A stretch of 36,428 nt of DNA from Candidatus Zixiibacteriota bacterium (GTDB taxonomy: Bacteria > Zixibacteria > MSB-5A5 > GN15 > PGXB01): NCBI GenBank assembly GCA_040752235.1, contig JBFMFJ010000001.1:1-36428 (forward strand). Direction: 5' to 3'. A program made the translations under genes and the position numbers. Below are positions 25,405-36,157 of this stretch, piece after piece; the stretch's first letter is position 1; every line of letters starts with the position of its first letter. Under the pieces are notes generated by a model. It worked only from the letters and a program-made list of their open reading frames with translations. It did not search any database and was not told the origin of the DNA.

Positions 25405-25546
25405 AGGTATTGTATTAATAGTCTTATTTCTTCATCCTACCAAACCGGTTAGCTTAGTCAATCCCTGTGAACTCGAATAATTCCCTAAATGGAAAAGAAA
25501 ATCCGCCGTTCCCGGCGGTTTCAAGAAGAGTGATCCTTGCAATCCT

Positions 25547-26332
25547 TTATGTCAATCCGGTAAGGATTCTGCCGGAGACATCCTTGATGCGCTGGATTGA
25601 GTGAATCAGCATTTCTTTGTCGCCTTTGTAAAGCTGGATATAGTCCGAAAAGGCGGTGTTGGTATCTAGGCCGATAAACTGGCAGACGACATAGGCGACG
25701 GCTTCAGCTTCGGTTTCCTTCTGCGTCTTCGATAGCTTTTCGCCGGAGTGATGCAGAAACTCATGAGCCAGTTCGTGGACTTTCACACCGAAATCTTGAG
25801 CCGGAGACAAACCGGAACGGATAACGATCTTGCCGCCGGTCGAACAGCCGTCCGCGGGCAAGGTATCCGAATACTCAAGAGTAATACCGTTAGCGGAAAT
25901 AAAATTACCGAGCATTTCCAGATAACGGGAGGGATCGCCTTGCACCCGGGCGAATTCGGGCAGTTCGGCTCCGTCGGTTTGGCTTACGTCAAAAACGTAA
26001 ACGGCCTTGAAACCGTTAACTTCGGTGACATTGGAACGGTTGTCATCATCTTCAACCGTTTCTTTTTTGTAAACCAATGGAGCGATGATAACGATGCCGT
26101 TTTCGCCTTTTTTGACGAACCGGCCAAGCTTTTTCCAGGTGTGAAATCCGGCGACATGAGTGGCACTCGGCTTCTGAAGAGCGATGAGCAGGATATTGCC
26201 GAAGCTGTAGCGATGGAATCTGCTCATCGTCTGAAGGTACTTCTTCAGTTCATCACTCTGACCAGCTTCGAGAGACTCGGTCAATGAAGTGAGAGCGTTT
26301 TCAATCAGTTGTTTTGCTTTGTTGTTCTTCAT
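25547..26332 (-). CDS. ardC: ArdC-like anti-restriction protein (ssDNA-binding N-domain plus HExxH metalloprotease domain)
   Basis: N-terminus FHRYSFGNILLIALQKPSATHVAGFHTWKKLGRFVKKGENGIVIIAP (ArdC-N pattern). C-terminal VHELAHEFLHH zinc-protease motif. aaggag RBS upstream. Confidence 0.7.
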   Translation of the reverse strand: MKNNKAKQLIENALTSLTESLEAGQSDELKKYLQTMSRFHRYSFGNILLIALQKPSATHVAGFHTWKKLGRFVKKGENGIVIIAPLVYKKETVEDDDNRSNVTEVNGFKAVYVFDVSQTDGAELPEFARVQGDPSRYLEMLGNFISANGITLEYSDTLPADGCSTGGKIVIRSGLSPAQDFGVKVHELAHEFLHHSGEKLSKTQKETEAEAVAYVVCQFIGLDTNTAFSDYIQLYKGDKEMLIHSIQRIKDVSGRILTGLT

Positions 26333-26522
26333 AATGTTTCTCCTTCGTTAAACGGGTTTTTGGTTCCTTCACCCACAGGCAAGAGGAACCCAAAAATCCG
26401 CGAGAAGGAGAAATCCCCCTACGGGAACAACTAAGCAAATATGAAATTACGCTCGATTATTAAGCGAGGCCACGATGGTCATTATGTCTGTGAGTCGAAC
26501 TGATGCGCAGTATATACTTAGG

Positions 26523-27551
26523 TTAAATACCGGCTTCTGCAATATGACAATACAGATTATACGATTGGATATAGCTGAACTCCGGAGGCAAAGCATTACC
26601 TATTAGCAAAGATATTGATGTTTTTGTGATAGTTTCCGGAAACTTGTAATCGCGCGGAAACGTCTGTAGCAGTGCTGCTTCTCTCGCAGTGATGGCTCTA
26701 TCTTCTACCGGATGCAAGAATCTTCCTTTGGACGGATTCAGGCATCCTCCGGTGATCGTGGACGAATAGTCGTCCCAGGAAAGACGGCCATATATATCGT
26801 TAAAGCCAATGTTGTCTTTGTCATGACAAGCCAATGTGAACTCGGGAATGTCCTTTCGACTTCCACCGTTTTTTGGAACAGCTTTTATTCGTCGCATTAC
26901 ATCCGTTGAATGAGTGGCGACAATTCGATGAATTGGATCGTTAGTGTCCGCAATTGACTCCAAACCGCCGATTGCGTCTCTCACCGTTACTTTCTCTTCG
27001 ACGGGCTCAGGAAACTCAAGTTTACCGAGCAGCGAGCCGATCAATACCAGACGTTTGCGTCGCTGCGGAACACCGTAATCTTGAATATTGAGAATTTCCA
27101 CTTGCGGCTTGTACCCCAAGTTGTCAAGCTCCTTCACAACTCGCTTAAACAGGTAATAATTGACCAAACCCGGAACATTCTCCATCATAATTGTCAGCGG
27201 CTTGAGTCCCTTAACAAATCGCAAGTATTCCAGAACTAGACTGTTACGTGTATCTCTTGTACTTCGCTTTCGGTTCAATCTTCGGACGGAGGAAAATCCC
27301 TGGCACGGTGGGCAACCAGCAAGCAGGTGGAGCGTTTTTCCATTTATCACAGATTTGACTTCAGATATTTTGATATCACGAATATCCCTGTCAAAAACAT
27401 GTGTTTTGGGATGATTAAGTCTGTAAGTTTTTATGGAATCCGAATCGTTATCTAAGGCCGCCACAACCGAAAAACCGGCCTTTCTCATTCCTTCTGAAAG
27501 ACCACCACATCCGGAGAATAAATCCATGGCGTAGTATTTGCTCATACTCAT
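26523..27551 (-). CDS. DNA (cytosine-5)-methyltransferase (second Dcm of the operon)
   Basis: Motifs I DLFSGCGGLSEG, IV GCPPCQGFS, VI MENVPGL, VIII QRRKRLVLIG, X GNALPP. ATGA start/stop overlap with the upstream gene (27548-27551). Confidence 0.9.
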   Translation of the reverse strand: MSMSKYYAMDLFSGCGGLSEGMRKAGFSVVAALDNDSDSIKTYRLNHPKTHVFDRDIRDIKISEVKSVINGKTLHLLAGCPPCQGFSSVRRLNRKRSTRDTRNSLVLEYLRFVKGLKPLTIMMENVPGLVNYYLFKRVVKELDNLGYKPQVEILNIQDYGVPQRRKRLVLIGSLLGKLEFPEPVEEKVTVRDAIGGLESIADTNDPIHRIVATHSTDVMRRIKAVPKNGGSRKDIPEFTLACHDKDNIGFNDIYGRLSWDDYSSTITGGCLNPSKGRFLHPVEDRAITAREAALLQTFPRDYKFPETITKTSISLLIGNALPPEFSYIQSYNLYCHIAEAGI

Positions 27552-28954
27552 CCCGTAGTGGAAAAAAAGTTATTTAACATCGTATCAAAAAGTTCCTTCA
27601 TTGAGGACGGATAATCCGGTACCCCGTAACCTCCCAACACCGAGAAGATGTGTTGCATTACCGGGGTCAGGAATGGTTCCGATAGTGAGCACATTTTCAC
27701 AGTACCCGTCCACGACGCATATTTGAGTGGCGTGTTCTTTCTTTCTTTAAGAGTCATGTCCTTGACGATCTGAGGAATGGGAATACTTAGCGTCTTGATT
27801 TCTTTAGGCACAACCACAAAATTCTTGTAATCCGAGCCGAGTTTCAGAAACGGCAAAATGAACGGACCTTCCGGTAAGCCATCTATATTGCCCGTTAGAT
27901 GCTTTATCCGATGTTGTTTTAGGTTGTCATCATTGACGCATATGGTAAGCATCTCTTTCAGTTTCGAGTTCGACACCTCAAGCGCATTAAGCGGAAGTAC
28001 ATTTATCAGACCCAGATTCTTATGCCAAAATCTTGCCAAATCACAGTCGGCCGATACAACCATGAAGTGTTTACTTTCAATTTCGACGATATCGCCTCTT
28101 CTGACCATTCCGTCAAAGTCGCCAATTGCTGATTCACACGGTAAGTATAACCGATAAGACCATATCCGTTTTAGTAATTCCTTATCGACGGCTGCGCCCT
28201 GTTGCCCTTGATTCGGCACGTCAAGATTAGGCAATTCGGACGTCGTCAGACCCGACCTGAATCTCTCTGCGACAAAATCCACCAGGTCTCTTTTGTCGCC
28301 GGAATCTTCCATGTTGAGATAGTTCTTTAGTTCATTCAAGGTAGCCCTGCCTAGGTCGGACAAAACACCATCCATTACTTGCATGGTCATCCTTCGAAGC
28401 CGTCCGGCAAATCGGAATGAGAAATTGCCGTCATATAGTTCTTTGGCCTTGGTAATGAGAGCATTGGACTGTTCTTCCTCATTCTTTGTCTTGTCCAGAA
28501 AATGCAGCCTTTTCTCGAATTCCTTAAACTCGGGCTTACCCAACACCGCGGTTATCTCGTCTTGCTTATCGGCACCGGAGAAAATGAAAATCAAACAAAA
28601 GGTGCTCTTAAGAATCTGGAGTAATATATCTTCCGAATTGGTACCTGCTCCAAGTCCAACTCCGGGATAGTCCCAATCATACACTATGATGTCAAACCGG
28701 ATGAGCCCGTCTTTTAGACTATTTATCAATAAGGACGGATTGGTTAAACCGTAGACCTCCCACTTATGACTTACTTGGTCTTCTTCTTTCTCATCTAATA
28801 GCGTTTTGATCAGATTCTTAACAACTTCGTCCGTCCACTGTTCTTTGGCAATGAGATAAGCCAAGTTTGAAGAGTTAAGGAGGTCCGTATCCCTCATATG
28901 TTCTGCAGCGGAAGCTGGAATTTTGTCGTCTATTACGCATATTGAATACTGCAT
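27548..28954 (-). CDS. Receiver (REC)-like N-terminal domain fused to unassigned ~300-aa C-terminal region; putative effector partner of the upstream kinase-like protein
   Basis: 468-aa ORF. D9-D10 (ICVIDDK), D93 (IIVYDWDYPG, compare CheY VISDWNMPN), S126 (FIFSGADK) and K155 (FLDKT) reproduce the receiver acid-pocket/phospho-acceptor/Ser-Thr/Lys layout, with an insertion between beta1 and beta3. The C-terminal part (RRGDIVEIESKHFMVVSADCDLARF...) is not recognised. There is a 1-nt gap after the upstream stop. Confidence 0.55.
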   Translation of the reverse strand: MQYSICVIDDKIPASAAEHMRDTDLLNSSNLAYLIAKEQWTDEVVKNLIKTLLDEKEEDQVSHKWEVYGLTNPSLLINSLKDGLIRFDIIVYDWDYPGVGLGAGTNSEDILLQILKSTFCLIFIFSGADKQDEITAVLGKPEFKEFEKRLHFLDKTKNEEEQSNALITKAKELYDGNFSFRFAGRLRRMTMQVMDGVLSDLGRATLNELKNYLNMEDSGDKRDLVDFVAERFRSGLTTSELPNLDVPNQGQQGAAVDKELLKRIWSYRLYLPCESAIGDFDGMVRRGDIVEIESKHFMVVSADCDLARFWHKNLGLINVLPLNALEVSNSKLKEMLTICVNDDNLKQHRIKHLTGNIDGLPEGPFILPFLKLGSDYKNFVVVPKEIKTLSIPIPQIVKDMTLKERKNTPLKYASWTGTVKMCSLSEPFLTPVMQHIFSVLGGYGVPDYPSSMKELFDTMLNNFFSTTG

Positions 28955-28955
28955 A

Positions 28956-31706
28956 CTATTTGTTCCCTTCCGTCTCGCGACTGTCAGGGACGCGGCCGAA
29001 ATCCAACGTAAACTGTGCGCCCGCCATATTTTTGATACGATCGCGCTGACTGGTCAGATATATATCCCCTTTCATTTGCTGCATGTAATAGCGGCAAATA
29101 TACAGTCCAAGGCCGCTGGGCGGGATCCGCATGCTATATCCGGGCTGAAACAGGTATGGCATAATCACGTCGCCGATGCCCGGACCTGAATCGGCCACCG
29201 TGATCATACGGTTGGACTCATCTATTTCAATAACTATTGATCTGTCCTCTATTGTGACGGTTTTCAACCAGTACCAGCTATTGTCGATGAGGTTTGAAAA
29301 TATTTGGATAACCGCTCCATACCTTCCATAAACCGAAAAATCTTGGTTTCCGCCAATCTTTATTTTTATAGATGCCTTTTCGAGCTTGGAGCGATTGATA
29401 TCAATCGTATATCGAATTGCCTTAAGCACACCGAATTGTGTCGGTGATTCGGTTTTTATGGCACGAACGGGACCCAAACGCCTTAATTCCGATTGAAGAG
29501 AGGCTGACGCCTTTTTGAGTTCGTCTAGTTTTTCTTTACTGGGTTGTTTTGCCTTGAGAAGTGTTGTCACTCCGTAGTAAAAGTTCGCGGCAATTTTGGC
29601 GATTTCATGCACCGATACGGCAACCGCCATACCGTATCCGGCCTGTTCGGTAAGCAAGTCCTGGGATTCTTGCAAGAGCTTAATACTCTTTTGAAGGTTT
29701 CTGAGTGAGGTAGAGAGGCTTACCAATCTGTCTTCACGCTTCTCCACTCCGCCCATTGAACCGAGTATATTGTATGGGTCTTTGTCAATCGGATAGTTAT
29801 CCTTAATGCCGTCTATAACTTTTGCGCCCTGCTTGGCATAATCGGCTAACAATTTGGGGTCTCGCACTACACTTTCAGTGAGCTTGCCATACTCCTCGCG
29901 TTTTCCAATAAACCTCACCTCAATAATGGAAGAGATAATGCTGCGAACCAATTTTGTGAGGTCGCTAAACGCCCTGTTGCCGATAAGGCCTTCGCGATCG
30001 GTCTTGTCAACAAGATGAATATTTTGAGTTTGGTCGACTTCGAGATTACCAATCATGTTATAATAGGACATTCGAAAGCCTTGCTTGATGTGAGTTTTGC
30101 TAAGGTCAAGCCAGTCCGTCTCCGCACCCCACTCGGCGGGAAAAATGTTAAGGCCGTCTCTGAATATCGAGATGCCTCCAAATTTCGTCAAGTAGTCTAT
30201 GAAGTTCTTTCCGTCGGGACCGGAGACGGTAACCCACGGAGTCCTCCTGTACCAAACGTCAATATGTAAAAAGAACTGCCCGCAAGCAGGTGTCCGTAGC
30301 GAGGCTCCTTTTCCCAAATCAGCCCAGTAATCCGCCTCAAATTTTCGGAGATCGACATTTTTTTCCTTAAAAGTCTCTCCCGGCATCGGAACCGAGCGTG
30401 GCGGATTGAATTTGAGTTCGTATTGTAGTGCACCCCTTTCATCCACCAATCCATCGAATGAGAAGGTCGCCGGAAACTGATCGACCGGGCTGTCTGTCGG
30501 AAGTTCTCCCAGTTGGGGGCACTCCAAAAATGCATTGAATCCAGTTGTCAGCGATTGTTTACCAGGGGACGGATGTGGCGAATTGAGACCTATCACCGAC
30601 CGATGCAATTCCTCAATTGTGTCCTTGTCCCAATAAAATCCTTCGCGGCCACCGTAAATTACCAATTGCGTACCGGAGTTTGTCGACCCGTAGTCACGGG
30701 ACGGTGATTGTCTGGTCAAAGCAATGCCTACTTTTTCCAGATCCGTAACTTCATTTGGTCTGGTATTGAAGTCATCCCAATCCACTTCAAGAATATATTC
30801 ATAATCCAGATCACTGACTTTGGTTTTTAGCATTAAATGCTTACCAAGTCTGTGTGCGGCGAATCGGCCGACTCCCTTTTCTCCGAGAGGAATTCGACCT
30901 CCGCGTTCCTTTTTAAGCTCTGAAATCAGTCGGTCAAACGTACCCAGCTTGCCGGACTTGGCCGCCTTTTCACGCTCATGTTTGATTTGCTCTTTTACGA
31001 CGGTTTTGATTGTTGACGCGGGACGAAGCCACCCATGTTCGATAACTTCACGCGTCATTCCCGAACCATCATCCTCAATTATGATTACAGGGCCCGGCAG
31101 TTTGGGATATTCCAGTTCGGATTTGTCCAAGCTTCCAAGAGAAGGCACATTTTCGATCCGTATTCGACAATAAGAGGCACCGGCATCGTAGGCGTTCTTA
31201 ATCAACTCAAGTATGCCAACTTTTTCTGAACCGATAAGTTGCTCTCCCAAGACCCGCACTAAATGAGCATCAGCCCGAAAGTTAAGGATTACCTTCCCAT
31301 CCAAGCAGATTTCCTCAAACAAACCCGCTGGGATTTGTCTCACGGCATTCTGTGAATTGTAGTACTTGGATTTTACTTCTCGGATATTCCCCTCCAAGTC
31401 TTTCAGCGGGACAGGTTCCGCAAAGGCTTTGTAATCATCAACTTCCACAAAATAATGACCATGCTCTCGTTTGTCTTCTTTCGGAGCTTGTTTGATCTTG
31501 CCACACCCAAAATAGACGCCTTGCCCGCCCGATCTGGTAGGCTCATAGTAAATGAACTCTACCGGTAGATTTTTGAATTGTCCCAAGTACTTCTTTGGAA
31601 AGTGATACGCACGACCGATGAAGTCGTTGTATCCACTTTCTTCCCTAGACTGTACCAGAACTAAATAGTTTTCTTTCATAAATTTCTCTTGTTTATTTCT
31701 CTTCAT
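28956..31706 (-). CDS. Dual-GHKL protein: unassigned N-domain, MORC/MutL/Hsp90-type ATPase module, and a C-terminal histidine-kinase core (DHp-like H-box plus CA domain)
   Basis: Start moved to MKRNK (ATG 31706), which forms an ATGA overlap with the glycosylase stop. GHKL-1: ELIKNAYDA, IIEDDGSGM, GEKGVGRF (about 30850-31211). HK core: SVHEIAKIA (His codon 29607-29609), N-box FSNLIDNS, G1 VADSGPGIG, F-box LFQPGYS, G2 SGLGLYICR (about 28994-29654). Confidence 0.75.
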   Translation of the reverse strand: MKRNKQEKFMKENYLVLVQSREESGYNDFIGRAYHFPKKYLGQFKNLPVEFIYYEPTRSGGQGVYFGCGKIKQAPKEDKREHGHYFVEVDDYKAFAEPVPLKDLEGNIREVKSKYYNSQNAVRQIPAGLFEEICLDGKVILNFRADAHLVRVLGEQLIGSEKVGILELIKNAYDAGASYCRIRIENVPSLGSLDKSELEYPKLPGPVIIIEDDGSGMTREVIEHGWLRPASTIKTVVKEQIKHEREKAAKSGKLGTFDRLISELKKERGGRIPLGEKGVGRFAAHRLGKHLMLKTKVSDLDYEYILEVDWDDFNTRPNEVTDLEKVGIALTRQSPSRDYGSTNSGTQLVIYGGREGFYWDKDTIEELHRSVIGLNSPHPSPGKQSLTTGFNAFLECPQLGELPTDSPVDQFPATFSFDGLVDERGALQYELKFNPPRSVPMPGETFKEKNVDLRKFEADYWADLGKGASLRTPACGQFFLHIDVWYRRTPWVTVSGPDGKNFIDYLTKFGGISIFRDGLNIFPAEWGAETDWLDLSKTHIKQGFRMSYYNMIGNLEVDQTQNIHLVDKTDREGLIGNRAFSDLTKLVRSIISSIIEVRFIGKREEYGKLTESVVRDPKLLADYAKQGAKVIDGIKDNYPIDKDPYNILGSMGGVEKREDRLVSLSTSLRNLQKSIKLLQESQDLLTEQAGYGMAVAVSVHEIAKIAANFYYGVTTLLKAKQPSKEKLDELKKASASLQSELRRLGPVRAIKTESPTQFGVLKAIRYTIDINRSKLEKASIKIKIGGNQDFSVYGRYGAVIQIFSNLIDNSWYWLKTVTIEDRSIVIEIDESNRMITVADSGPGIGDVIMPYLFQPGYSMRIPPSGLGLYICRYYMQQMKGDIYLTSQRDRIKNMAGAQFTLDFGRVPDSRETEGNK

Positions 31707-32320
31707 GCCCTTGAGTCCACATATTTCCAAAGGTACCAACAGGCAATCGTGCGAAACGGTCTCCATCTATCGGTGATCAGATCAATTTCGTCTTCTCCAC
31801 AATATTCGTCGCCATAAAGCTTTTTAATCGCATTTATAATTCCTTTGTCGGTAGAAGGAAACACATCAGGACGGTGTAGAACGAACATAAGATACATTTG
31901 TGTCGACCAAGGACCAATCCCTTTCACCTGAGTGAGCACCTCTGTAATACGCTCATCTGACATGTTGGACAATCGCCTTAGCCTGATTGAGCCATCTTCA
32001 ATCTGGTGAGTCAGTTCACGAATCGTCTTGGTCTTAGCTTTAGAAACACCAACATTGAACAAGGCTTCATCATTGATTGTGGAGATTCTATCCGTCGTGA
32101 TCGTTTGGTTACCCATTGCCTCTTTTAGATGCTGGAAAATAGTGGCAGCGGCTTTGCTCGACAACTGCTGCCCGACGATAATACGAACCAGTGACTCAAA
32201 CGAATTGTTGCGCCTGTAGACCTTGTAAGGTTCGACGTCTCGTATGATTGTCGAGAGAATCCGGTCTGAATTCTTCAAATGTCGAATCGCGTCAATAACT
32301 AATTTGCGCTCTTTCGTCAT
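31703..32320 (-). CDS. HhH-GPD superfamily DNA glycosylase (AlkA / 3-methyladenine glycosylase II-like)
   Basis: IVGQQLSSKAAATIF and VKGIGPWSTQMYLMFVLHRPDVFPSTDKGI (helix-hairpin-helix, GPD region with catalytic Asp). Start taken at MTKERK (32320), which forms an ATGA overlap with the vsr stop. The ORF track start is 32353. Confidence 0.8.
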   Translation of the reverse strand: MTKERKLVIDAIRHLKNSDRILSTIIRDVEPYKVYRRNNSFESLVRIIVGQQLSSKAAATIFQHLKEAMGNQTITTDRISTINDEALFNVGVSKAKTKTIRELTHQIEDGSIRLRRLSNMSDERITEVLTQVKGIGPWSTQMYLMFVLHRPDVFPSTDKGIINAIKKLYGDEYCGEDEIDLITDRWRPFRTIACWYLWKYVDSRA

Positions 32321-32733
32321 CCTTGTTTCTCTCTGGTTCTTCTGGTCTTCCAAACTGCCATGATTTGCGGAAACCGTTCCCTCAAATCATGCTCCCAATA
32401 TCTAAATATTTTCCAGTCATGGTTTTTGTAATATCGTGATACTTCTCCGTCTCTTCTTCTATTTCGCGATATTTTCTGTTTCCAAAACTCTTTTCTAGTT
32501 TCGGGTAGCTGACAATGTTTCTTGCATCCGTGCCAAAAACAGGAGTCGAGAAATATCACTATCTTGCGAGACTTGAGGAGAATATCCGGTTTGCCGAAGT
32601 AGCCTGAGGGGTTTTTGCGATATCGATATCCGAGTTGCCAAAGAGCTTTGCGAAAATCCACTTCCATTTTGCTGTCGCGATCTCTTATGCGCGACATGAT
32701 CTCGCTTCTCTTAGTTTTACTTACCTTGTCCAT
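32317..32733 (-). CDS. vsr: Very-short-patch repair endonuclease
   Basis: 138-aa ORF with RSEIMSRIRDRDSKMEVDFRKALWQLGYRYRKN, GKPDILLKSRKIVIFLDSCFWHGC and WEHD, which are canonical Vsr blocks. Confidence 0.9.
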   Translation of the reverse strand: MDKVSKTKRSEIMSRIRDRDSKMEVDFRKALWQLGYRYRKNPSGYFGKPDILLKSRKIVIFLDSCFWHGCKKHCQLPETRKEFWKQKISRNRRRDGEVSRYYKNHDWKIFRYWEHDLRERFPQIMAVWKTRRTREKQG

Positions 32734-32736
32734 TCA

Positions 32737-33798
32737 CTAGTTTATCTCCCAATCCTTCGGTAAAGTGATCTTGTCGTATCCCCGGCTCAACATAAACGGT
32801 TTCAATTCCGTACTTGAAGGAAATTCCGCCACGAATTCATTCTCCACATCCCTAAGAAGGGTTTTCCCCAGTTTGTCGCGATACTTTCCGCTCAAACAAA
32901 GATTATACCAATCATCAAGATCGCTCAAAGTTATTATACCCTTGATTCTTTCTCCCCAGCCAACCTGGGCCAGAAGTGACTCAATCGCCTTCTTCTCCGA
33001 ATCCAAACACACTATTACAATTCTGTCGGCGACTATGTCTCCCGCGATATCTTCAACAACCTTGGGGGTCAGAGAAAGATGTTTAACCTGAAAAGCGACG
33101 CCGAAATTCGACCACATATCCAATCCACGATCCGCCGCGTTCGTCACCCCGACACGATAGAGTGCTGCCGGAACCACCGCTTTGGGATTCTCGTCGTCGA
33201 TACCAAGCACCATGCTCAGAAAAGGTCCGAAGTCCCGCAAAATCTCTTTGTCTTCATTCAACACTTCAACGGTAATCTGAGCCTTCAACGCTCTGACAAT
33301 TGAGGTGAACAACGCGTAAACGAAAATCTCATACATTTTGTCCACACTGCGACGCAATCCCGGACTGTTCTGAAAGAGCAAAACGACTTTTTCCAAAGAG
33401 AATTCCGAAGGTGACGAATCGTGAATGTGTTTCTGAATGTCATATACTGAGCCCAGTCGATGCTCAAGACATTTGTAAACGTACGCCTCCACGAACCCCT
33501 TTCCGGCTTTGTTGAGTTGCCCCAAACGCGCGAGAAGTTTTGGTGGCATGGCGTTGGCTTCGAAAACGTTGTCTTGGTATTTTTGGCTTGACGTGCTTTT
33601 TCTTCCCACCAATCGCAACGACACAGCGTCGCGCCACTTCTTGGACACGTTTCTGTATGACTCCAGGTCTTCCAAATCCCAACCGTCTTTTGATCTATGT
33701 TGGAACAAAATCTCCGCAATTTGAATCGGCTTGTATAAGTGCACGCGCGATTTCCTGATAATCGTGTCCAACGCCTTCTTTGCTTTATCAGTGGGCAT
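32737..33798 (-). CDS. Probable type II restriction endonuclease (possibly HaeII-family)
   Basis: 353-aa ORF sandwiched between a Dcm gene (11-nt overlap) and vsr (3-nt gap). The N-terminal RVHLYKPIQIAEIL block resembles what I recall of HaeII-family REases. That subfamily call is from memory and not verified. Confidence 0.55.
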   Translation of the reverse strand: MPTDKAKKALDTIIRKSRVHLYKPIQIAEILFQHRSKDGWDLEDLESYRNVSKKWRDAVSLRLVGRKSTSSQKYQDNVFEANAMPPKLLARLGQLNKAGKGFVEAYVYKCLEHRLGSVYDIQKHIHDSSPSEFSLEKVVLLFQNSPGLRRSVDKMYEIFVYALFTSIVRALKAQITVEVLNEDKEILRDFGPFLSMVLGIDDENPKAVVPAALYRVGVTNAADRGLDMWSNFGVAFQVKHLSLTPKVVEDIAGDIVADRIVIVCLDSEKKAIESLLAQVGWGERIKGIITLSDLDDWYNLCLSGKYRDKLGKTLLRDVENEFVAEFPSSTELKPFMLSRGYDKITLPKDWEIN

Positions 33799-34780
33799 AA
33801 ATTCTCTGTGCTTGTACGGTCGCGAAAATCTCGGCTTGATACATTTCGCTCACCGGTTTTGAATTAAGCGCTTTTACCAACTCCTTCGCCACGGCTTCTA
33901 TCTTGGGAACCACGACGCTGTTCCCCGCTTGCTTGCGAACCTGAGTATCGTTGACCACTATCTTGAATGAGTCGGGGAATCCCTGAAGCCTCAGCATCTC
34001 TCTCGGAGTCAAACGTCGCCTCCCGTTAACGAGCAAATAATTATACGAAGCGTTCGCTCTCAACGCGCATGAAAACGGATGAATGCCTATATTACCGGAT
34101 TTATTCTCGTGCCAAACAGTGGGTTCTTTGGGAATCGTCTTGACTCGTTTCTTCAACTTGTTCTTTATATGGTCGGATATGAAGAACTTCTCACTCACTT
34201 TCTCGTCCGGCTCGAGGATTTCAGCCAAGGATCGCTTCGTGATGCCGCTATTGCCGTTCGGAAATTGGAAAGGCCGATTCTGGTCGAATCCCACTAAAAC
34301 CACCCTTTCCCGTTTCTGGGGCACTCCGAAATCCAGTCCATTGAGAACCTTGTAATGGACGAAATAATCGAGTTTTTCCAGGTGGTCCAAAATCACTTTG
34401 AGAGTTCGCCCTTTGTCGTGCGAGGTCAATTGTCTGACGTTTTCAAGAAGAAACGCTTTTGGGCGTTTCGCTCTTAGAATTCTCTCTATTTCAAAAAACA
34501 ACGTTCCTCTGGTGTCCGCAAAGCCCAAACGTTCACCTATGATACTAAAGGCTTGACAAGGAAATCCGGCGGCTAAAATGTCGTGATCTGGGATATCGTC
34601 GGCATCAACCTTCATGATGTCGCCGACGGGTCGATCTCCGAAATTCGCCTCGTAAGTGTCCTGACAAGACTCGTCCCACTCGCTGGAAAATACGCACGTT
34701 CCACCCGCTCTTTCCAGAGCCAGGCGAATACCACCGATGCCGGCAAAGAGGTCGATGAATGTGTATTTCTTTTTGCTCAT
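33788..34780 (-). CDS. DNA (cytosine-5)-methyltransferase (first gene of the operon)
   Basis: Motifs I DLFAGIGGIRLA, IV GFPCQAFS, VI LENVRQL, VIII QKRERVVLVG, X GNSVVVP. Start taken at MSKKKYTF (ATG 34780, gaaggg upstream) rather than the track's 34813. Confidence 0.9.
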   Translation of the reverse strand: MSKKKYTFIDLFAGIGGIRLALERAGGTCVFSSEWDESCQDTYEANFGDRPVGDIMKVDADDIPDHDILAAGFPCQAFSIIGERLGFADTRGTLFFEIERILRAKRPKAFLLENVRQLTSHDKGRTLKVILDHLEKLDYFVHYKVLNGLDFGVPQKRERVVLVGFDQNRPFQFPNGNSGITKRSLAEILEPDEKVSEKFFISDHIKNKLKKRVKTIPKEPTVWHENKSGNIGIHPFSCALRANASYNYLLVNGRRRLTPREMLRLQGFPDSFKIVVNDTQVRKQAGNSVVVPKIEAVAKELVKALNSKPVSEMYQAEIFATVQAQRIYAH

Positions 34781-34849
34781 GTGGCCCTTCAAAATTACTA
34801 CGCCCAGATACAATTCCAGCGCGTCATAAACAGTTTATCGCATTTATAT

Positions 34850-34878
34850 ATTATACAATGTTTTAAGTCAATTCGCAA
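34850..34878 (-). promoter_or_regulatory. Candidate promoter of the seven-gene R-M/defence operon
   Basis: On the minus strand: TTGCGA (34878-34873), 17-nt spacer, TATAAT (34855-34850) preceded by TG. It lies about 70 nt upstream of the Dcm start. Confidence 0.5.
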
Positions 34879-34937: not shown

Positions 34938-34965
34938 GAAAAAAAGGCGGAACAGTAGTCCCGCC
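34938..34965 (-). terminator. Candidate intrinsic terminator after the 87-aa ORF
   Basis: On the minus strand: ggcgg-N10-ccgcc hairpin (34961-34965 / 34946-34950) followed by an 8-nt run of T interrupted by one C (34938-34945 on plus is gaaaaaaa). The stem is short. Confidence 0.4.
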
Positions 34966-35038
34966 CGGAAAGAGCAAAAAATCCGATATAGCCGTTAATC
35001 ATCTCTGCGGGCCGATAATCGCGCTTTTTACGATTCAA

Positions 35039-35302
35039 CTAACGAACAATGGCCGGATCAGTCGCTTTTGTAATCAGGCTCTTCCCCATATGCAGATCAT
35101 CCTCCGAGAGTTCGGACTGATAATCCTCAACTATCTTTCTGATCCAAGCAAGCAAGTCAGGGGCCGCGGATATTAGCACAGCATCCTCGGGGCTGAGATT
35201 CCAGTCCTCGTAATCAAGAATGGCGGTGCCGCTGGCATCAGAGAGTACTCCAAAGTCAGTCCATTGCCAGGGACCTTCGGAGTGTTTATTTGTATCTGGC
35301 AT
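35039..35302 (-). CDS. Hypothetical acidic small protein downstream of the AbiEi-like gene
   Basis: 87-aa ORF, 30 nt after the AbiEi-like stop. No nucleotidyltransferase motif. Confidence 0.4.
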   Translation of the reverse strand: MPDTNKHSEGPWQWTDFGVLSDASGTAILDYEDWNLSPEDAVLISAAPDLLAWIRKIVEDYQSELSEDDLHMGKSLITKATDPAIVR

Positions 35303-35332: not shown

Positions 35333-36157
35333 TCAGTGAATTCTCCATTCAGTCAGATTGGCGGGATTCACGTTAACAATCAAATTCCAGTCGCCGTCTC
35401 GCGTGACGGTCGTTTCCTTATAGCCCGGATCCAACAAGGCAAAATTCGGGGTTTTGTGCTTTAAGAGCTCTTTGCGTGTCCTGGGTTTGTTTAATTCCAG
35501 TATATCCAAAAGATAACCGAGGCGCTTGATTACGGCTCCGTTTTTCAGCTTCAGGGAATAGTTCAATAGCTTTTCATGGTCAAGCTCTTTGCGTCCGTTC
35601 CACAGACCTTTGACCACTTCTACGATTTCGCCGCAATAGCGGGGCTGATCCAGACAGTCGATGATGGCTTTTTCCTTGTCGGCGACTGATACCTTCAAGT
35701 TGCCGACCCAGTGGTCTTCATATCCGAAAAACTTGTTATTTTTGAGCTTGATGAATTTTATCATCATCCCCTGCATTTCCAGGGGTAGCTTGGTCTTCTG
35801 CGTGGCGACAAAAATCGTTTTGGACGGTTGTTCGGTCCAACCGTAAAAAGACAGAGCTGTCCAGTAGCTCAGGTAATATGGCTCAATCAACTGCGAAGCG
35901 ATGACAATACCCTCTTCGGTGTACTGCCCTGCCTTCCAAGCTTCCGGCGGTATCAGCAAATATTTGGCCTTCTCGATGCGCTGGATTTTCTTTTTCTCAG
36001 CCAGTCTATGAATGATCTGTGACGCTTCGGTATTACTGATATTGAGCAACTGCGCGGCTTCGGCTACCGTGAACACTCCAAGCCCTTTGCTGCCGATAGT
36101 AGCAATTAGTTCGGTCTCTTTTGGCCCCAGTCCTGTCATTTTTTTTCGATTAACCAT
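35333..36157 (-). CDS. AbiEi-family (type IV TA antitoxin-like) transcriptional regulator
   Basis: 274-aa ORF. N-terminal wHTH VFTVAEAAQLLNISNTEASQIIHRLAEKKKIQRIEKAKYLLIP. Then PYYLSYWTALSFYGWTEQ and a C-terminal KEKAIIDCLDQPRYCGEIVEV, the pattern I associate with AbiEi_3/4 domains. An alternative start is at 36139. Confidence 0.6.
   Translation of the reverse strand: MVNRKKMTGLGPKETELIATIGSKGLGVFTVAEAAQLLNISNTEASQIIHRLAEKKKIQRIEKAKYLLIPPEAWKAGQYTEEGIVIASQLIEPYYLSYWTALSFYGWTEQPSKTIFVATQKTKLPLEMQGMMIKFIKLKNNKFFGYEDHWVGNLKVSVADKEKAIIDCLDQPRYCGEIVEVVKGLWNGRKELDHEKLLNYSLKLKNGAVIKRLGYLLDILELNKPRTRKELLKHKTPNFALLDPGYKETTVTRDGDWNLIVNVNPANLTEWRIH

Follow-up and report, generated by a model that had tools for sequence, protein, structure and literature searches.

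A seven-gene restriction, repair and signalling operon in a Candidatus Zixiibacteriota bacterium is probably a mosaic of two mobile defence cassettes

In the window examined here, a stretch of 36,428 nucleotides (nt) from a Candidatus Zixiibacteriota bacterium (GenBank assembly GCA_040752235.1, contig JBFMFJ010000001.1, positions 1 to 36,428), seven co-oriented genes lie tightly packed on the minus strand at 26523-34780. Numbered g1 to g7 from the upstream end, they encode a C5-cytosine DNA methyltransferase (Dcm), a HaeII-family restriction endonuclease, a Vsr repair endonuclease, an HhH-GPD DNA glycosylase, a sensor kinase with two GHKL-type ATPase domains, a receiver-domain (REC-like) protein and a second Dcm. 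The question raised by this locus is whether the genes form a single machine or are separate systems that have been joined. A preliminary description of the DNA had left both options, namely a composite of two systems sharing regulation, or one larger system in which 5-methylcytosine (5mC) status, base excision and a phosphorelay are linked. We conclude, with a probability of roughly 0.7, that a mobile element here carries a mosaic defence operon, made up of two independently mobile cassettes joined head-to-tail. The upstream cassette, g1 to g4, is referred to as module A and the downstream cassette, g5 to g7, as module B.

Every one of the seven open reading frames (ORFs) is present at the coordinates given below, as seen in the ORF listing and translations, and the family support is independent for each. 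From g1 to g7, the junctions are, in order, -11, +3, -4, -4, +1 and -4 nt, with ATGA stop/start overlaps at 32317-32320 (g3/g4), 31703-31706 (g4/g5) and 27548-27551 (g6/g7). The preliminary description, which had all seven genes running from one promoter-like site, gave the coordinates and all six junctions exactly, and its gene calls (a dual-GHKL kinase-like protein, a REC-like protein, HhH-GPD, Vsr and two Dcm) agree with the family matches.

Which genes travel together was judged from 19 genome loci found through g6 and contig loci L020 to L023 for module B, and from 60 HaeII-type metagenome loci found through g2 for module A. The module B loci all carry the GHKL, REC-like and Dcm genes, with a Vsr gene upstream or downstream, or an HhH-GPD gene as its substitute, in nearly all. 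The kinase and receiver genes adjoin in every complete locus, and the Dcm gene is within the cassette in all. A g4 homologue was absent from all 19 genome loci and from the 4 contig loci with this trio, and module B stands apart from both HaeII and the glycosylase in more than 20 loci, including some where it follows a NotI-like system or no restriction-modification (R-M) system. The 60 HaeII loci have Dcm and HaeII, usually followed by Vsr, and none includes g4, g5 or g6. Dcm-HaeII-Vsr followed by the glycosylase was seen only in the window and in one other locus, L025, where the proteins are 85% (Dcm), 90% (HaeII), 71% (Vsr) and 55% (HhH-GPD) identical to those in the window and where an unrelated CD-NTase gene comes next. 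Because the glycosylase travels with HaeII in L025 and is absent from the module B loci, the partition is 4+3, and the sequence comparisons identify the operon as a 4+3 mosaic and not a 3+4 one. The preliminary description had set four extra genes apart from a Dcm-endonuclease-Vsr trio; its option of two systems agrees with the data, but the glycosylase belongs with HaeII. We also note that the CD-NTase-type (CBASS-like) gene directly after Dcm-HaeII-Vsr-HhH in L025 (L025 3970-4863) is another stacked defence cassette.

The joint between the modules (31679-31706, minus strand) contains the g4 stop, the ATGA overlap and two candidate starts for g5, at 31706 and 31679. The closest relative is L020, in which the GHKL, REC-like, Dcm and ArdC proteins are 80%, 67%, 74% and 86% identical, respectively, the ArdC and recombinase backbone is the same, and a type I R-M system (L020 567-6092) is found in place of the HaeII system of the window. 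In blastn comparisons, similarity to L025 ends at approximately 31716 and similarity to L020 begins at approximately 31697, about 18 nt ahead of the ATG at 31679. The breakpoint thus falls at the g4 stop, between 31697 and 31716. The in-frame ATG at 31679, 27 nt downstream of the ATG at 31706, aligns with the L020 start in a nucleotide alignment and is at or near the start of most of 16 homologues; the ATG at 31706 is not. The ATGA overlap at 31703-31706 is real sequence, but the start used may be the one at 31679, leaving a gap of 23 nt between g4 and g5, and the overlap may be a by-product of the recombination joint. The strict co-expression that the preliminary description read from three ATGA overlaps is plausible, but translation across the joint probably starts 27 nt further downstream than it supposed.

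A single integrated seven-gene system, with 5mC status, base excision by g4 and the phosphorelay linked, would account for the tight junctions and three ATGA overlaps, and for one promoter-like site with no internal terminator. HaeII and module B are also adjacent a second time, in L001. However, none of the other 23 module B loci, L001 included, has g4, and g5 and g6 occur in 0/60 HaeII loci. The closest g4 relatives end SacI-type operons that have a D12-class methylase and no C5-methylase, and the g4/g5 boundary shows a clear recombination breakpoint. The comparative data largely refute an integrated system, given that g4 goes with HaeII and the GHKL/REC/Dcm trio occurs without it, and we regard this explanation as very improbable. 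Of the two options in the preliminary description, it is the composite of two systems sharing an upstream promoter that these data support. That description had also named a pattern that would count against its view, in which the Dcm-endonuclease-Vsr and GHKL/REC/Dcm trios always occur independently and are never adjacent. This is nearly what was found, as the trios are independent in almost all loci and are adjacent again only in L001.

Sharing of a promoter is predicted from the signals that flank the operon. Its 5' boundary is an intrinsic terminator of the upstream 87-aa gene (34945-34966, minus strand; a nine-pair stem with six G-C pairs, then a T-run). Just downstream of this terminator is the promoter-like site TTGCGA-17 nt-TATAAT (34850-34878, minus strand), which is the best sigma-70-type match of the region (10/12 positions) and the sole such match within the intergenic gap. 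Sigma-70-like sites in the region are not enriched over shuffles (16 found vs 14.4 expected), so the promoter assignment rests on position and not on statistics. An alternative -7 motif of the TAnnTTTG, or Bacteroidota, type (TAATTTTG) is found at 34797-34790, and the host, which is probably of the FCB group, may use a promoter consensus other than that of sigma-70. Internal promoter-like matches are all weak and all intragenic. No convincing internal terminator was found in the operon, where terminator-like matches are weak, intragenic and at chance level (16 vs 11.5 +/- 3.8 expected), and a single transcript from one upstream promoter is probable. A convincing terminator was also not found directly after g7. 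The transcript may include an ArdC-like gene as its eighth, since a spacer and this gene come before the nearest strong intrinsic terminator on the downstream side (25503-25518, minus strand; six G-C pairs, then a T-run).

Module A amounts to an ordinary type II R-M system of the HaeII type, supplemented by two genes that limit damage. The first gene, g1 (33788-34780), encodes an M.HaeII-like C5-cytosine DNA methyltransferase (PF00145 6e-96; TIGR00675 1e-100) that, outside L025, shares 54-72% identity with the corresponding protein in nearly all HaeII loci with a g1 match; the lower identities are few and are those of end fragments and L092. The second, g2 (32737-33798), overlaps g1 by 11 nt and encodes a HaeII-family type II restriction endonuclease (PF09554 2e-123, 338/338 profile positions; PADLOC REase_II 1e-113). 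The C5-methylase and the RE_HaeII endonuclease adjoin and are co-oriented, as expected for a HaeII-type R-M system. Compared with R-M systems of the HaeII/NgoAI type with a linked Vsr (the 'V' genes of REBASE), g1 to g3 are from the same families and have the same order and tight spacing as most of the 60 loci, in line with the earlier view that Dcm-endonuclease-Vsr is a standard trio. The window differs in adding an AlkA2/Mag-type glycosylase and then a second system. The g1 methylase is predicted to mark RGCGCY-type sites as 5mC and g2 to cut DNA that is unmarked. The 8.4-kb operon includes 1 RGCGCY site vs 4.8 +/- 2.2 expected (p ~0.04), but RGCGCY is not depleted across the whole window (27 found vs 31.6 expected). 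Avoidance of HaeII sites is weak within the operon, and across the window there is none.

The third gene, g3 (32317-32733), encodes a Vsr very-short-patch (T:G) repair endonuclease that matches PF03852 (8e-26; 90 bits, cut-off 27) and TIGR00632 (6e-36; 123.5 bits, cut-off 97.85). It is the sole Vsr of the operon and adjoins the C5-methylase system. Besides its 71% identity to the L025 protein, g3 is 62-68% identical to most HaeII-linked Vsr proteins and 58% identical to the Vsr of L020. In a neighbour-joining tree of Vsr proteins, drawn without bootstrap support, g3 pairs with L025 inside the HaeII-linked clade. An assignment of g3 to module B, suggested by the Vsr genes of most module B loci, was rejected in view of L025, the Vsr tree and the 60 HaeII loci. 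In this tree the Vsr of L020 likewise appears nested in the HaeII-linked clade, though it stands behind a type I R-M system, which suggests that the upstream cassette of L020 was swapped around a retained joint between Vsr and module B. Vsr nicks DNA at T:G mismatches arising from 5mC deamination, and it would, together with g4, limit the collateral cost of methylation.

The fourth gene, g4 (31703-32320), encodes a short AlkA2/Mag-type HhH-GPD alkylbase DNA glycosylase with catalytic Asp158. It matches PF00730 (1e-10; 42 bits, cut-off 26.2), and its relatives in the PDB are 2H56 from Bacillus halodurans (5e-30), the Deinococcus radiodurans AlkA2 structure 2YG8 (1e-25), 3S6I (6e-24) and Schizosaccharomyces pombe Mag1 and Mag2. 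The G134-I-G-P-W motif and D158 align with the template Asp. Like other short AlkA-type glycosylases (E-values 5e-30 to 1e-22), g4 has the HhH-GPD core and the catalytic Asp and lacks the N-terminal domain of AlkA; the domain, the motif, the catalytic residue and homology to characterised members all place it in the AlkA/Mag-type HhH-GPD group. Mig.MthI is a precedent for an HhH-GPD enzyme linked to an R-M system, and g4 is likewise encoded next to one. However, g4 is not of the MutY/EndoIII/Mig type, which makes T:G repair by g4 unlikely, and its assignment as a Mig-like T:G mismatch glycosylase was rejected because it is AlkA2/Mag-type and has no MutY/EndoIII signature.

The context of g4 relatives bears on what the enzyme might do. 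Its closest homologue is the L025 protein, and 6/7 of the closest homologues examined are encoded by the last gene of a type II R-M operon. Five of these seven end operons with a D12-class methylase and RE_SacI_N, often overlapping the preceding gene by 8 nt (loci L026-L030 and L032; for example, L026 380-3060), and these SacI-type operons have no C5-methylase. One close homologue, in L024, has housekeeping genes around it. Type II R-M systems thus seem to be joined repeatedly by an accessory glycosylase of the AlkA2-like kind, and no description of this linkage was found in the literature searched. As the clade occurs with C5 and D12 methylases alike, a common 5mC-specific repair cannot explain the linkage. 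Rosic et al. in 2018 are said to have found that methylases cause alkylation damage. That DNA methyltransferases do so is also stated in a recent preprint (bioRxiv 10.64898/2026.01.24.701492), and D. radiodurans AlkA2 excises 1-methyladenine and 3-methylcytosine (PMC5128194). These substrates and the alkylation damage caused by methylases make repair of methylase by-products the preferred role for g4, which most likely removes aberrantly alkylated bases. An offensive role, in which g4 would act as a type IV-like restriction glycosylase on phage DNA not cleaved by HaeII and remove its modified bases, would also fit a clade that ends two unrelated kinds of type II operon (C5 methylase with HaeII, and D12 methylase with SacI-like endonuclease), and the pockets of AlkA-type enzymes are broad (PMC5128194). 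However, we consider this role unlikely, as the nearest characterised relatives are all alkylation-repair enzymes, one close homologue has the housekeeping context noted above, and alkylation by-products are plausible for both classes of methylase.

In module B, g5 (28956-31706) encodes a 916-aa soluble sensor kinase that matches HATPase_c_3 (8e-12, residues 164-316) and HATPase_c (2e-15, residues 799-901). The first of these is a paraMORC-type GHKL ATPase (Iyer et al. 2008, PMC2292703) with intact Bergerat motifs at residues 167-177, 211-217, 275-283 and 344-352. The paraMORC3/Shedu proteins (PMC12137116) are a different family from g5. The DHp domain has the H-box S-V-H700-E-I, and the N, G1, F and G2 boxes of the histidine kinase (HK) catalytic domain are at residues 805-870; HK structures match residues 691-889. 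Across 17 homologues there is no variation in the GHKL motifs, in His700 or in the N, G1, F and G2 boxes. No transmembrane segment is evident in the g5 sequence, though no formal test for one was made. NCBIfam gave only generic HK matches for g5 and none for g6, and PADLOC has no model for g4, g5 or g6.

Ahead of the GHKL ATPase, g5 has a conserved N-terminal domain of approximately 115 aa with the motif YHFP...YYEP...G.G..FG.G. A profile search of the PDB with this domain gave noise only, and in a profile search of a 5.8-billion-protein set all matches were fragments from its own family, with no other architecture among them. Weak Pfam EVE matches were obtained for 3/17 members (best E 0.06), and at a guess the domain could be a PUA/EVE-like reader.

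The 468-aa receiver-domain protein encoded by g6 (27548-28954) consists of a REC-like domain, a helical linker and a C-terminal domain; it has no Pfam match and 174 full-length homologues. The residues of a receiver domain (acidic pair, phospho-acceptor Asp, Ser/Thr and Lys) are all present. Among 35 sequences, D93 and K155 are invariant and D9 and S126 are found in at least 90%, with Asp9/10 as the acidic pair. An AlphaFold2 model of g6 matches REC domains in Foldseek with a target-normalised TM-score (TMt) of 0.65-0.75.

A pair with this organization has been described. HEF_HK (PF19191) and Response_reg_2 (PF19192) were defined computationally, with no experiments (Bellieny-Rabelo et al. 2021, PMC8011034); the pair is linked to C5-methylases, Vsr and R-M genes. 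Module B shares with HEF_HK pairs the HATPase_c_3, H-box and HATPase_c of a soluble kinase, with the DHp His-Glu that completes the HEF_HK architecture, the catalytic residues kept in the REC domain, and the linkage to C5-methylase, Vsr and other R-M genes. However, the window proteins are below both Pfam models. For g5 there was no match to PF19191 at E <= 10, and the gathering score was not reached; 4/10 of its homologues match PF19191 at the H-box (E 0.0016-0.15, 13-19 bits vs the cut-off of 24.1). Likewise, g6 itself does not match PF19192, but 29/35 aligned homologues do at E <= 1 (best 6.7e-6), and 7 of the 120 homologues listed have a precomputed PF19192 match. The window also differs in that the methylase is downstream and not upstream, a Vsr belonging to the cassette is missing, and the kinase has the additional conserved N-terminal domain of ~115 aa. 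By its architecture and distant profile matches, module B is a divergent branch of the HEF_HK/Response_reg_2 two-component-like cassette.

The C-terminal domain of g6 was modelled separately, with a predicted local distance difference test score (pLDDT) of 72, and has a MazF/CcdB-like predicted fold. The top 18 PDB matches to this model are all MazF-family toxins (MazF/MoxT), with probabilities of 0.99-1.0 for the top 12 and TMt of ~0.6, and the predicted order of strands and helices in residues ~285-440 matches that of MazF. However, the beta1-beta2 catalytic loop of MazF is absent, and other residues are conserved (D303, C304, D305, K312, E426 and H435, as well as R285, G287 and D288). The domain is never free-standing; in 239 representative clusters, from a set of 1.84 billion proteins, it is always fused to REC and in the same position. 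No MazF signal was obtained for it by PDB phmmer, hmmsearch, Pfam searches with 16 members or HHalign against Escherichia coli MazF, and g6 has no sequence or profile match to PF02452 or PF01845 that would make it a member of the MazF/PemK/CcdB families. We tentatively describe the output domain of g6, from the model, as MazF-like in fold and not a MazF family member.

The last gene, g7 (26523-27551), encodes the second C5-cytosine methyltransferase (PF00145 1e-59), the conserved methylase of module B. In most module B loci its identity is 59-74%, and this holds even when that of the receiver protein falls to ~29%. A different arrangement, Dcm-HaeII-Vsr-Dcm2 without the GHKL and REC genes, is found in HaeII loci L035, L047, L048, L050 and L054 (for example, L047 6863-7867), where Dcm2 is directly after Vsr and is 34-39% identical to g7. 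In L006 (10270-10929) and L008 (11661-12335), a MutY/EndoIII-type HhH-GPD gene occupies the Vsr slot between the receiver and Dcm genes, and encodes a glycosylase of 219-224 aa with an N-terminal PWRKRRTPY motif. This looks like a non-orthologous replacement of the T:G repair function of Vsr, and it speaks for T:G repair as an integral component of module B. A role for Vsr as the nuclease arm of a MutL-like g5 was considered, and is unlikely to be its main role, given that L006 and L008 replace Vsr with a glycosylase.

These features suggest how module B might work. The g7 methylase would mark self DNA, and g5 would interrogate DNA via its N-terminal domain and a MORC-like ATP-driven clamp, autophosphorylate on His700 and act as phosphodonor for Asp93 in g6. 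Once phosphorylated, g6 would have its MazF/CcdB-fold domain activated or set free, causing a growth halt or an attack on nucleic acids. Module B normally comes with its own T:G repair gene; here it has none and is placed behind the Vsr of module A. In a more ambitious form of this account, module B is an uncharacterised immune or addiction class in which a MORC clamp-kinase reads the methylation of its own system and relays to a MazF-fold toxin and, separately, the g4 clade is a dedicated R-M accessory glycosylase for 3-methylcytosine and 1-methyladenine, lesions that DNA methyltransferases make by off-target alkylation. The signal could be non-self DNA or failure of the upstream R-M system, the cassette could spread as a promoter-less add-on behind any R-M operon, and the DNMT-ALKB2 link that has been proposed in eukaryotes could have its bacterial counterpart in the g4 clade. 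We offer this as a tentative combination, which is on balance doubtful as a whole.

A few observations weigh against the account of two independent cassettes with the roles proposed above. The MazF-like assignment comes from a medium-confidence model (pLDDT 72) with Foldseek E-values of ~2e-3, and the hidden Markov model (HMM) and HHalign searches gave no MazF signal for a domain that lacks the MazF catalytic loop. Besides the borrowed Vsr, module B has no recognisable DNA nuclease, which makes a restriction-like outcome conjectural. The substrate assigned to the AlkA-type enzyme is a prediction. The promoter match is not statistically distinguished, and the shared transcript is likewise predicted. 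Finally, the presence of module B behind other R-M systems in 9-10/17 loci hints at a functional link.

A complete R-M system is directly upstream of module B and co-oriented with it in 9-10 of the 17 distinct loci, at a spacing of ~1-150 nt, mostly <=40 nt. It is of type I in L018, L020 (567-6092) and L021 (991-6850), with one nearby in L005; of type II in the window, L001 and L004; of type III in L002 and L013; and IIG-like in L016. In L013 (5281-15650), the GHKL, REC, Dcm and Vsr genes are flanked by a type III-like mod gene, with only 3 nt between its end and GHKL, and by the res gene (ResIII and RE_endonuc). PrrC is an anticodon nuclease embedded in the EcoprrI type I R-M operon, and module B is likewise a putative latent toxin cassette in or after an R-M operon. 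However, there is no relationship between the proteins, module B comes with a methylase and is found with many types of R-M system, and the coupling is drawn by analogy only. Module B might nevertheless be coupled to the upstream R-M system as a guard or regulator in the manner of PrrC and EcoprrI, with the toxin firing when restriction fails, so that the two modules would be cooperating layers. The close, co-oriented placement behind complete type I, II, III and IIG-like systems, the position of the cassette between mod and res in L013, the usual lack of intergenic space for a promoter of its own in those loci and the apparently HaeII-linked type of Vsr kept in L020, where HaeII is gone, with the swap around a retained joint that this suggests, are consistent with such coupling. 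R-M domains are also over-represented near the HEF_HK/Response_reg_2 pair, for which control of R-M has been speculated (PMC8011034). However, the partner systems are mechanistically unrelated, making a specific physical interaction unlikely, and both a methylase and a T:G repair gene belong to module B itself. No R-M system is directly upstream in L003, L006, L008, L009 and L010, and clustering in defence islands together with operon compaction on mobile elements could give the same pattern. We judge a guard role to be quite unlikely.

The flanks of the operon code for relaxase-like, RuvC-like, tyrosine integrase, large serine recombinase, AbiEi and ArdC proteins, and this gene content places the operon in the accessory region of a mobile element. 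T9SS-tail and Fib_succ_major proteins are also encoded in the flanks. No g6 relative was found in the plasmid collection searched. In this setting, module B could serve the mobile element for addiction (post-segregational killing) or epigenetic regulation and not be an anti-phage system; loss of the element would dilute the g7 methylation, and the kinase/receiver pair would then arrest the cell or alter gene expression. The mobile-element genes (relaxase, serine and tyrosine recombinases, ArdC), the same backbone in L020, the toxin-like fold of the effector and the lack of a PADLOC model for g5 or g6 all fit, as does the conservation of g7 across phyla (59-74%), unlike the diversifying specificity expected under phage pressure. 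Yet the same logic fits defence, as R-M systems do both, module B is recurrently associated with bona fide defence genes, and no DNA-binding output domain of the regulator type was found. A role in addiction or regulation in place of defence seems improbable to us. Among known defence systems, Detocs has a cytoplasmic histidine kinase that, on sensing infection, phosphorylates a receiver to which a toxic effector is fused. Module B is similar in logic only, because the three genes of Detocs are not all present, there being no second, receiver-only gene (DtcB) in the cassette. Its effector is not a PNP-type ATP nucleosidase, its sensor is MORC-like GHKL and not TPR, and it has its own methylase and T:G repair gene.

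Downstream of g7, the mobile-element backbone continues with a gene for an ArdC-N-domain (anti-restriction-like) protein (25547-26332, minus strand; PF08401 3e-13), which has its 86% identical counterpart at the corresponding place in L020. This gene is separated from g7 by a structured spacer of 190 nt (26333-26522, minus strand), the last ~140 nt of which form a conserved leader that pairs with the ardC ribosome-binding site. This part is ~93% identical to L020 (11672-11865), vs 73% for the flanking coding DNA. It folds as a long hairpin (-48.4 kcal/mol, z = -2.6) in which UUUCUCCUUC pairs with the ardC Shine-Dalgarno sequence, and no Rfam family was found for the spacer. The hairpin may act on translation as a leader, or it may be a single-strand promoter from which ardC is expressed early after transfer. 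On the other side, just upstream of the operon, are the small 87-aa gene (35039-35302) and a gene for an AbiEi-type antitoxin/regulator (35333-36157).

Parts of this locus are already known, as HaeII R-M with Vsr is textbook material and the kinase/receiver cassette is described in one computational paper, though uncharacterised. What is new is the division of the operon into 4+3 genes at a joint that could be mapped, the non-orthologous glycosylase of Mig/MutY type that stands in for Vsr in some cassettes, the habit of the cassette of standing behind diverse R-M operons, the R-M-linked clade of AlkA2-like glycosylases and, tentatively and from the structural model, the MazF-like fold of the receiver output domain. 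The operon is not a new integrated machine, and instead illustrates how defence cassettes are stacked on mobile elements, sharing promoters and repair genes. The R-M-ending clade of AlkA2-like glycosylases suggests that bacteria pay for, and repair, the alkylation side-products of their own methylases, a cost that has so far been discussed mainly for eukaryotic DNMTs. If true, a methylation-gated phosphorelay that ends in a toxin fold would be a new coupling of epigenetic self-marking to an abortive or restrictive response, and module B might illuminate how MORC ATPases read methylated chromatin.

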